A stretch of DNA of 17,334 nt from a virus. Lineage: Duplodnaviria; Heunggongvirae; Uroviricota; Caudoviricetes. The stretch is taken from the IMG/VR virus record IMGVR_UViG_2690316086_000006. One strand, given 5' to 3'. Every line of letters starts with the position of its first letter. The first letter of the stretch is position 1. The position numbers were made by a program, and so were the translations under genes. Below are positions 6,733 to 7,826 of the stretch, piece after piece. The notes under the pieces were generated by a model. It did not search any database. It was not told the DNA's origin and saw nothing but the letters and a program-made list of their open reading frames with translations.

Positions 6733-6816
6733 TTATCCCCAGCGGCAAATCGAATACACCACCAGCGCCACCGCCATCGCAATTCCTACCGTTGTGAATG
6801 CTTCAGGCCAGGTCAT
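6733..6816 (-). CDS. Putative 27-aa hydrophobic peptide ([27 protein letters not shown])
   Basis: ATG overlaps the TGA stop of the upstream 114-aa ORF (ATGA); followed directly by the terminator. Confidence 0.3.
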
Positions 6817-7157
6817 CGTAAAATATCCTCCACGCTTATCAGTCCGTTCCGCTCCAGATAACTCATCGCCTTATCCGGTAATTTGCAGTCTGGCTTCGCT
6901 TTCCTCAGTTGCCAGGTTAACTGCTTTACCAGCATGGTTAACTCATCGACCAGACGCTGATATCCCACTGGTTTGTATTCATGCAATTTACCGGCTGGCT
7001 CTGCTGCCAGCGATACCAGTGCGATTTCCAGAACAGCAATATCCATCTTATATGTGCGGATGATGTCATGGTCGATTGTGCCCGGTATGCACAGTCTCTG
7101 TGTTTCAATAGTCTCCTCTGCGTGAGCTATTAACTGCTCTCTGGTAAAAGTCGTCAT
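6813..7157 (-). CDS. Hypothetical protein (114 aa)
   Basis: ORF whose ATG overlaps the HNH gene stop (ATGA coupling). Confidence 0.5.
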
Positions 7158-7519
7158 GCCGTAGCCCCTTCTTGATATTTTTCAAACCAGAACACAACTG
7201 GGTCAGATTTCATTTCAACCAATCCCATACGAACCAGCGCTTTGCCTTTCCCGGACGCAAGGAATTCACGACGACCATCACTGATAATTCGCCGATAATC
7301 TTCCAGACTACTGCAATGCTTGTGCAGATTGCATGGGTGGCATGCCGGAACCATGTTGGATATATCGTCACGTTCCTGGTGAAGCATATTTCCATCAAAA
7401 CGAATGACCGGTTTTACATGGTCTGCATGCCACTTTTCGCCAAGTTCGCAGCCGCAATAAGCACAGCGACCGCCGAACTTCATGCGCAGCTCTGCACGTT
7501 GTTTTTTCGTCAGTGCCAT
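7154..7519 (-). CDS. HNH endonuclease (121 aa)
   Basis: ATG at 7519 with AAGGAAAG Shine-Dalgarno; motifs CAYCGC...WHADHVKPV...N...PACHPCN. Confidence 0.75.
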
Positions 7520-7520
7520 A

Positions 7521-7739
7521 TCAGCTTTCCTTATACGGATTAATTTTATTGTGCAGTGTGCTGAACGACGCCCACACCACGTCGTTATACAATTCAATAA
7601 CTGGCTCAATTATTTTCACGATAAACCAGACCAGTAATAGCGGGGGTATCGGTATCATCAACACGATAAATATAATGAGAAACAAAAATTCTGTCGCTCT
7701 ACTTTTTCTCGGATATTCTTTTCTGAATAATGTAGTCAT
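7521..7739 (-). CDS. Small membrane protein (72 aa)
   Basis: Hydrophobic segment FLFLIIFIVLMIPIPPLLLVWFIV; stop 1 nt before the HNH start. Confidence 0.5.
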   Translation of the reverse strand: MTTLFRKEYPRKSRATEFLFLIIFIVLMIPIPPLLLVWFIVKIIEPVIELYNDVVWASFSTLHNKINPYKES

Positions 7740-7744
7740 TTCTT

Positions 7745-7767
7745 ACCGCCCTTTCAGGCGGCCTCCT
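7745..7767 (-). promoter_or_regulatory. Leader element: AGGAGG Shine-Dalgarno followed by a GAAA-loop hairpin (copy 1)
   Basis: Minus-sense AGGAGG-CCGCCU-GAAA-GGGCGG, then 6 nt, then the ATG at 7739. Confidence 0.45.
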
Positions 7768-7826
7768 GATGTTTTGAGGGTGCAGAAATCCCTCCGGTTA
7801 AGGATTAAATTTTTAACTAAATTTAA

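Follow-up and report, generated by a model that had tools for sequence, protein, structure and literature searches.

The 17,334-nucleotide stretch of DNA analysed here (the window; IMG/VR virus record IMGVR_UViG_2690316086_000006, Caudoviricetes) carries on its minus strand, from position 7739 down to position 6733, a block of four small, tightly coupled genes, which encode a DUF4014 protein, an HNH protein predicted to be a nuclease, a protein of 114 amino acids, and a peptide of 27 amino acids. A preliminary description of the block had treated the four genes as a functional unit and had proposed a role in exclusion or abortive infection, homing, or anti-defence. Our results indicate that the region is probably a hyper-mosaic accessory stretch of a lambdoid prophage, in which four independently assorting genes lie next to each other without constituting a dedicated system. 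The block is ordinary lambdoid accessory DNA that had already been sequenced, found at 100% identity in published records of phages and of E. coli, and the only modestly new item in it is a conserved and routinely unannotated gene encoding the putative 27-amino-acid membrane peptide.

The distribution of the four genes was determined in 5426 complete E. coli genomes, a sample whose members are not phylogenetically independent, many of them carrying the same prophage. The whole block, defined as at least 80% of positions 6700-7800, was present in 188 genomes, and any part of it in 1635. The full-length HNH gene was found in 385 genomes (7%), the junction leading from DUF4014 to HNH in 217, the junction leading from HNH to the 114-amino-acid gene in 191, the DUF4014 half of the junction probe in about 1100, and the 27-amino-acid open reading frame (ORF) in 1349, with 1865 copies and up to five copies per genome. 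Judged by these counts, each gene is therefore mostly found without the others. The viral sample consisted of 173 IMG/VR contigs that carry the 27-amino-acid ORF together with at least 2.6 kb of upstream DNA; all four genes were present in 22 of these contigs, HNH in 38, and DUF4014 in 71, while 55 contigs had none of the other three genes. The proposal that the four genes work as a unit thus largely failed the test of co-occurrence.

Outside the complete block, the genes were encountered in several other arrangements. In one of them, DUF4014 is followed by an ORF of 87 amino acids, an ORF of 55 amino acids, the 114-amino-acid gene, and the 27-amino-acid ORF, and strain EDL933 has a similar order. 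In another, DUF4014 is directly followed by a DUF551 gene and then by the 27-amino-acid ORF, and in a third, DUF4014 and HNH precede a 221-amino-acid gene, a DUF551 gene, and the 27-amino-acid ORF. UTI89 carries an Ead-like gene of 118 amino acids and then HNH, with no other gene of the block, and there the HNH protein is identical and its DNA is 97.5% identical; in WCHEC96200 an identical HNH protein is encoded behind a 135-amino-acid gene, and DUF4014 is absent. The order is reversed in Salmonella phage g341c and coliphage HK225, where HNH (50-62% identity) is located 5' of DUF4014. The points of exchange lie at the ends of genes or a few codons inside them, and the last 40 nucleotides of DUF4014, which hold the Shine-Dalgarno (SD) sequence of the next gene, are conserved regardless of the gene that follows. 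A chimeric ORF of 55 amino acids, detected in E. coli EC0026B (L003:2923-3090, minus strand) and in a further locus (L022:1922-2089, minus strand), joins an Ead-type N-terminus (MTTITKER…IALASLEAEP) to the last 14 residues of HNH and, to judge from its sequence, shows recombination inside ORFs at conserved 'EAEP/DP-V' codons. Such gene-boundary exchange is familiar from the mosaicism of lambda, HK97/HK022, and P22. We also observed a Shigella sonnei entry (P0181, 194 amino acids) in which DUF4014 and HNH are fused; the two frames differ by one base, and the fusion is probably due to a 1-nucleotide insertion or deletion or to a sequencing error.

The genomic context of the block was established by comparison with the chromosome of E. 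coli E2865, to which the whole window is 99.98% identical. According to the RefSeq annotation, the minus-strand order starts with a cro-like gene, which is divergent from a helix-turn-helix (HTH) repressor gene, a YdaT-like gene, and the genes for an O-like and a P replication protein, continues with DUF1627, DUF977, DUF4406, several Ead/Ea22-like and small genes, DUF4014, HNH, and the 114-amino-acid gene, and ends with parD-parE (on the opposite strand, convergent), DUF968, RusA, a Q-like or Q-region gene, three tRNAs, and the lysis genes. The cro-like gene lies about 6 kb upstream of the block, and DUF968-RusA and the Q-like gene follow downstream; this places the block in the nin-type delayed-early region of a Qin/Rac-like lambdoid E. 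coli prophage. A segment of 3.5 kb (5963-9491), comprising parDE, the four genes, an Ea22-like gene, and four small genes, is 99.66% identical to the Shiga toxin (Stx) phage ArgO145, where it is found in the opposite, int-proximal early-left arm, between the recombination genes and int. Since the segment occupies opposite arms in the two genomes, this 3.5-kb piece has moved between two early operons, and its orientation relative to transcription was kept.

The nin (ninA-ninI) and ea/'exo-xis' regions of lambda, P22, and Stx phages occupy the same positions, between the replication genes and Q or between the recombination genes and int. As established by lambda genetics for lambda itself, these regions have the same small ATGA-joined ORFs, delayed-early expression, exchange of single genes at their boundaries, and Ead/Ea22 proteins. 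None of the four products, however, is a lambda nin or ea protein. The earlier remark that the block is not a standard lambda function is true only in a narrow sense; small, ATGA-coupled, exchangeable genes are normal for nin and ea regions.

The gene calls of the preliminary description were confirmed, and the four ORFs follow one another in the same orientation on the minus strand. The DUF4014 gene (7739-7521, 72 amino acids) extends from an ATG at 7739 to a TGA stop at 7523-7521, and the HNH gene (7519-7154, 121 amino acids) begins with an ATG at 7519, one base past this stop. The 114-amino-acid gene (7157-6813) overlaps the stop codon of HNH in an ATGA, and the 27-amino-acid ORF (6816-6733) overlaps the stop codon of the 114-amino-acid gene in the same manner. 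The junctions thus read, in order, TGAnATG, ATGA, and ATGA, in agreement with the stop/start overlaps and the 1-nucleotide gap that had been described. In the program-made ORF list the HNH start had been placed at a TTG at 7609; the homologues, the Prokaryotic Genome Annotation Pipeline (PGAP), and RefSeq place it at the ATG at 7519, giving a protein that starts with MALTKKQ. Every downstream start has an SD sequence of its own inside the preceding gene (AAGGAAAG, AGAAGGGG, and GGAGG). In this layout, ribosomes would load at the leader of the DUF4014 gene, which combines an SD sequence with a GNRA hairpin, and would move from gene to gene through termination-reinitiation at the TGAnATG and the two ATGA junctions. 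Genes that assort independently are joined by these same signals, and such coupling is therefore no proof of a system.

The translation-initiation leader of the DUF4014 gene (7745-7767, minus strand) consists of the SD sequence AGGAGG (7767-7762) directly joined to a 7-bp stem with a GAAA loop (7762-7745), and in the RNA fold its 3' side is followed by five nucleotides, AAGAA, and then by the ATG of DUF4014. The distance between the SD sequence and the ATG is 22 nucleotides in the unfolded RNA and about 5 nucleotides with the stem formed, and by shortening this distance the hairpin would help initiation at DUF4014. The SD-hairpin leader noted previously is therefore real by RNA folding, and it is accompanied by a second exact copy: a 25-nucleotide element, CAGGAGGCCGCC(Y)GAAAGGGCGGTA, is exactly repeated in the window at 7744-7768 and 8816-8840, both on the minus strand, against a chance expectation of 0. 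The second copy stands before a 60-amino-acid DUF7167 gene, and in other prophages the same element was found 5' of at least four different genes. The combination of SD sequence and GNRA hairpin looks like a portable initiation or junction element. Covariation was not detected in the stem, because the stem is almost invariant, and its rare variants weaken the pairing rather than compensate for each other.

A scan with a sigma-70-like consensus did not reveal a promoter 5' of the block on the coding strand. The 2.3 kb scanned contained three promoter-like sites, compared with 4.3 expected in shuffled sequences, and none of them was located upstream of 7739 on the minus strand. We infer from this that the block is a stretch of a longer transcript and not an operon of its own; after induction, transcription reading through from the early rightward promoter would reach it. 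At the other end of the block, folding and direct reading identified a G+C-rich hairpin of 9-10 bp (6690-6721, with no strand assigned) between the 27-amino-acid ORF and the convergent parE. Its tails are TTTTTT on the plus strand and an interrupted TTTGATTTAT, which makes a poor U-tract, on the minus strand, and it is a candidate bidirectional terminator. The hairpin was assigned to the parDE cassette because the homology of the 27-amino-acid ORF ends exactly at its stop codon, and it reads as the putative terminator of the convergent parDE pair because the good, uninterrupted T-run sits on the plus strand. The operon had been described as ending at a terminator; a hairpin is indeed present there, but its good T-run is that of the plus strand and the structure belongs to the parDE cassette. 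It may nevertheless slow or stop transcription of the minus strand, and in the lambda nin region the tR terminators slow or stop transcription. A search of positions 6700-7800 against Rfam did not detect any known RNA family.

The biochemical roles of the four products discussed in the following are predictions. The DUF4014 protein matches Pfam PF13198 over residues 1-71 of 72 (E = 5.7e-22, 78.4 bits, with a cutoff of 23.2) and PHROG 1832 (E = 2.5e-42), and PGAP names it 'DUF4014 family protein'. It has an N-terminus with a net charge of +3, a hydrophobic stretch at about residues 17-42 with a Kyte-Doolittle maximum of 2.97, and an amphipathic tail of about 30 amino acids, and by the positive-inside rule it would be a small single-pass inner-membrane protein with its N-terminus inside. 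Among the epsilon15 gp46-like proteins (PF13198, PHROG 1832) it is a plain member of the same size and the same accessory-region position, and no difference from them was noted. Two labels are attached to such proteins, 'O-polysaccharide acetyltransferase inhibitor' and 'released from the phage upon host infection', and both were traced to a GenBank note on epsilon15 gp46; a full-text literature search found no experiment behind them, and they stand unverified. A sequence search of the PDB with the DUF4014 protein gave no significant match.

The HNH protein is identical to WP_001229296.1 and belongs to the HNH superfamily by its match to Pfam HNH (PF01844; 28.2 bits, with a gathering cutoff of 21.4) and to PHROG 2118 (E = 8.8e-57). 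It contains the motifs CxxC...HADH...N...CxxCN, which combine zinc-finger and catalytic residues, and in 25 homologues, which extend to 50% identity in Comamonas and Aquabacterium, residues C19, C22, H31, D33, H34, N55, C60, C63, and N64 are invariant. An AlphaFold2 model had a mean predicted local distance difference test score (pLDDT) of 89.7, and its nearest folds were Cas9 HNH domains, the Gme HNH nickase (4h9d), and Cap5 of the cyclic oligonucleotide-based antiphage signalling systems (CBASS). The protein shares with these the beta-beta-alpha-metal fold and the CxxC/CxxC zinc site; however, the sequence likeness is marginal (E = 0.058), the Foldseek E value is about 0.02, and only this phage family has the conserved helical C-terminal half (residues 72-114). 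The predicted nuclease is, according to the model, a bare stand-alone beta-beta-alpha-metal domain with a family-specific helical C-terminal half. An identity with lambda NinG/Rap was rejected, since PF05766 reached only 18.2 bits against a cutoff of 25.4 and matched the HNH-like core only.

Homologues of the HNH protein with 40-77% identity occur in lambdoid, P22-like, T1-like, RB49-like, Vibrio, Acinetobacter, and Caulobacter phages, where their genes lie in early or accessory regions. A full-text literature search on HNH endonucleases in lambdoid nin regions gave nothing usable. The T1-like virulent phage IMM-001 carries a 77%-identical homologue about 2 kb upstream of its small terminase gene, and in RB49-like phages 42%-identical copies are located directly downstream of the ligase gene. 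The unit exchanged is the ORF with about 13 nucleotides on each side, and it behaves like a cassette in at least four contexts. With other free-standing phage HNH genes (PHROG 2118; T-even and SPO1-type homing genes such as mobA-E and I-HmuI) it shares the stand-alone ORF between unrelated genes, the patchy distribution, the occurrence of the same gene in unrelated backbones, and the presence of homologues in virulent T1-like and RB49-like phages. A free-standing homing-like or autonomous selfish phage nuclease would accordingly be the leading candidate for its role, if only tentatively; an accessory function in phage DNA metabolism comes next as a somewhat weaker possibility, and a function in defence or anti-defence seems unlikely. 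Several features count against the homing type. At 121 amino acids the protein is small and, unlike mobA-E and I-HmuI, has no recognisable DNA-targeting module; a clean HNH-less allele was not found in collinear genomes, including the UTI89-type context, and in loci that lack HNH either other ORFs (87 and 55 amino acids, or DUF551) take its place or the neighbours differ too; and the non-nuclease genes around it are equally cassette-like, so that mobility is not specific to HNH.

The 114-amino-acid protein matches PHROG 660 (E = 8e-43) and, through its N- or C-terminal half, matches five other PHROGs in part, and it has no Pfam match at E <= 1, PF13935 (Ead_Ea22) and PF04448 (DUF551) included. 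Its N-terminal module, MTTxTKEQL...IAL(A/V)SL(E/A)AEP, is common to Ead, Eaa, and DUF551 proteins, and alignment showed that its C-terminal module of about 47 amino acids also ends Eaa and DUF551 proteins of 100-200 amino acids. The protein thus appears to be an Ead/Eaa-family chimera assembled from shared modules, a relative of the family and not a member by the Pfam definition. The AlphaFold2 model (pLDDT 77) is all-helical with five helices; it resembled generic helical hairpins only and had no Foldseek match at E <= 0.001, and a sequence search of the PDB gave no significant match.

The coding nature of the 27-amino-acid ORF was examined with copies gathered by means of two anchors in the upstream sequence, which contain no part of the ORF except its start codon, so that circularity was avoided. 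Among about 266 anchored sites, 232 have an intact ORF of exactly 27 codons, representing 70 alleles and 45 peptides. The pN/pS ratio (nonsynonymous to synonymous polymorphism) is 0.29 in frame, compared with 1.16 and 1.46 in the other forward frames. Across unrelated contexts the homology covers exactly 84 nucleotides, from ATG to stop, with nothing on either side. The family follows the pattern M[TS]WP[ED]AF...G......AL..YSICRWG, in which a variable hydrophobic core is framed by a conserved N-terminus (M[TS]WP[ED]A) and a conserved C-terminus ([YF]SICRWG), and the copies have a ribosome-binding site, GGAGG or CAGGAGG, at -9 to -13 (GGAGG at -9 in the window). The fixed length, the purifying selection, the ribosome-binding site, and the homology bounded by start and stop argue that this is a real protein-coding gene. 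Together with the Pfam match of DUF4014, the in-frame pN/pS ratio bears out that the small ORFs of the block are conserved as coding. One antisense frame was rejected as the coding frame despite a pN/pS of 0.32, because wobble positions are common to it and the sense frame and because the differing flanks leave it without a conserved start or stop. Long open antisense frames run over the ORF at 6703-6861 and 6630-6797 on the plus strand, and a low pN/pS that stems from common wobble positions can mislead tests of coding potential.

An ATGA overlap with an ORF of the Ead/DUF551 family was present in each of the 224 copies for which sufficient upstream DNA was available, and these copies have 34 different downstream contexts. 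The preceding ORFs encode 77-301 amino acids and end with …LPEPPQEVNQ (DUF551 type) or in the manner of the 114-amino-acid protein. This constant coupling means that the 27-amino-acid gene travels with the Ead/DUF551 family and not with HNH. A fusion of the peptide with DUF551, suggested by a 90% cluster shared with 121-amino-acid proteins, was dismissed as an artefact of partial or fused entries. The commonest sequence downstream of the ORF, AAACGGTTTGCGGG, was present in 81 of the 224 copies, and in many other prophages (L003, L005, L018-L020) a hok/gef (hokD) type I toxin locus replaces parDE about 290 bp downstream. A search of 185,579 species-representative genomes with the strict pattern returned matches only in E. 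coli and Shigella flexneri genomes, and the family looks narrow in range. PGAP never annotates the ORF, which a few submitters have entered as 'bacteriophage protein' or 'hypothetical protein', and a full-text literature search for the peptide gave nothing usable.

The peptide has one hydrophobic helix (Kyte-Doolittle maximum 2.46) and a charged C-terminal end, and by the positive-inside rule it would be a single-pass membrane peptide with its N-terminus outside and its C-terminus inside. Hydropathy thus supports the earlier view that small membrane proteins, DUF4014 and the 27-amino-acid product, flank the nuclease. The peptide resembles KdpF, type I toxins such as Hok, Ibs, or DinQ, and other small membrane regulators of less than 50 amino acids from E. 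coli and its prophages in having a single hydrophobic helix and a charged C-terminal end, and Hok/Gef loci are often nearby in other prophages. However, it has no significant similarity to them, the best score being 14.7 bits for KdpF against a cutoff of 26.85, and its gene differs from theirs in being coupled to an upstream protein gene; neither an indication of an antisense RNA nor an Rfam match was found in the region.

Several observations weigh against the reading of the block as four independently assorting genes. In the viral sample, 33 of the 38 HNH-bearing loci also carry DUF4014, where about 16 would be expected, and the two genes lie side by side in either order, with 50-60% identity between the HNH proteins. 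As mentioned above, the samples lack phylogenetic independence, and the transcription from the early promoter, the read-through of the hairpin, and the reinitiation between the four genes are deduced from the layout. The bias towards joint occurrence could mean that DUF4014 and HNH form a two-gene unit with a functional or homing link, in which HNH would home on a target in or near DUF4014 or both products would act jointly, for example in superinfection exclusion or the degradation of host DNA. Adjacency both as DUF4014-HNH in E. coli prophages and as HNH-DUF4014 in g341c and HK225, the presence of the junction in 217 of the 385 HNH-bearing E. coli genomes, and the unusually conserved 3' end of DUF4014 would fit such a link. 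We nevertheless regard it as improbable: about 44% of the HNH-bearing E. coli genomes have no such junction, identical HNH proteins are encoded behind unrelated genes in UTI89 and WCHEC96200, and different genes adjoin the diverged HNH homologues of Citrobacter, Yersinia, Klebsiella, and Salmonella and of T1-like and RB49-like phages. Moreover, about 80% of the DUF4014-bearing genomes have no HNH gene, DUF4014 is so common in this region that some adjacency is to be expected, and neither an allele differing by the presence or absence of HNH only nor an obvious sequence-recognition domain in the HNH protein was found. A speculative reading, to which we give slightly more room, is that the 27-amino-acid ORF represents an unannotated family forming a two-part module, in which a cytoplasmic helical/DUF551 protein and a membrane peptide could act on the host envelope, for example by exclusion or by modulating a membrane protein, and that HNH could, separately, be of the homing type and target the DUF4014 junction.

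It is very improbable that the prophage expresses the four genes as a single system for anti-phage defence, abortive infection, or anti-defence. The tight coupling, the nuclease placed between two small membrane proteins, and the parDE toxin-antitoxin pair adjoining the block could be taken as signs of such a system, as could the resemblance of HNH to PtuB and to retron-associated HNH effectors. In PADLOC, however, the HNH protein gave generic HNH-motif matches far below the family level, the best of them to PtuB (E = 3e-8, 31.6 bits, residues 6-79), and the other three proteins gave no match; in NCBIfam, the scores for PtuB and retron-associated HNH effectors were 12-24 bits with cutoffs of 52-175. 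An identity with the Septu/retron PtuAB system was rejected on the NCBIfam PtuB score (12 bits, cutoff 150) and on the absence of a PtuA ATPase gene from the block and its flanks. The proposal of an exclusion, abortive-infection, or anti-defence unit therefore finds little in these searches; in addition, the genes do not co-occur as a set, the consensus scan found no promoter for expression in the lysogen, and the block lies inside a delayed-early lytic operon. Least probable of all is a packaging-associated HNH protein of the HK97 gp74 type, a terminase helper at cos, displaced to the early region. The length of 121 amino acids and the minimal architecture resemble gp74, and the IMM-001 homologue lies near a small terminase gene, but no BLASTP alignment with gp74 was obtained even at E <= 100, and in every lambdoid and P22-like context examined the gene has a nin or ea position far from terminase, so that the characterised terminase-associated family named in the preliminary description as a possible alternative does not apply. 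The distribution is also patchy, with HNH in 7% of the E. coli genomes, and one would expect a gene required for packaging to be fixed in a given type of phage; we consider a packaging role for HNH highly unlikely. Taken as a whole, these comparisons leave the mosaic of independently assorting accessory genes as the probable reading.

Other features of the prophage were recorded in the same analysis. The ParD antitoxin and ParE-RelE toxin pair (6046-6608, plus strand) lies between the 27-amino-acid ORF and the DUF968-RusA-Q genes and is convergent to the early operon, and early transcripts reach the late regulator only by crossing parDE head-on. A second toxin-antitoxin pair, a HigB-type toxin gene with an HTH antitoxin-like gene, is located beside the immunity region (14170-14834, minus strand), as placed by coordinate transfer from the E2865 annotation. 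The small RNA DicF was identified at 16102-16153 on the plus strand (Rfam, 75 bits), and ydfC, dicB, and DUF1482 are annotated near DicF in the E2865 record; the left arm is thus Qin-like. Downstream of the Q-region, the E2865 annotation has tRNA genes for Arg, Arg, and Ile (window 2115-2363, minus strand), and beyond them a match to the small RNA STnc100 was found (105 bits; window 1320-1492, minus strand).

Our findings suggest a correction to the way in which such regions are read, since tight start/stop coupling in a lambdoid accessory region is by itself no sign of a functional system. PGAP systematically misses a conserved 27-codon gene for a putative membrane peptide in 1349 of the 5426 genomes, about a quarter of them, including those of O157:H7 and other Stx-phage-bearing strains, and this gene should be added to small-protein catalogues and prophage annotations. 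If the two-part module of an Ead/DUF551 protein and a membrane peptide is real, it would be present in about a quarter of E. coli genomes. The recurrent leader of SD sequence and GNRA hairpin and the conserved junctions at gene ends offer a picture of how genes may be swapped in these regions without loss of expression.

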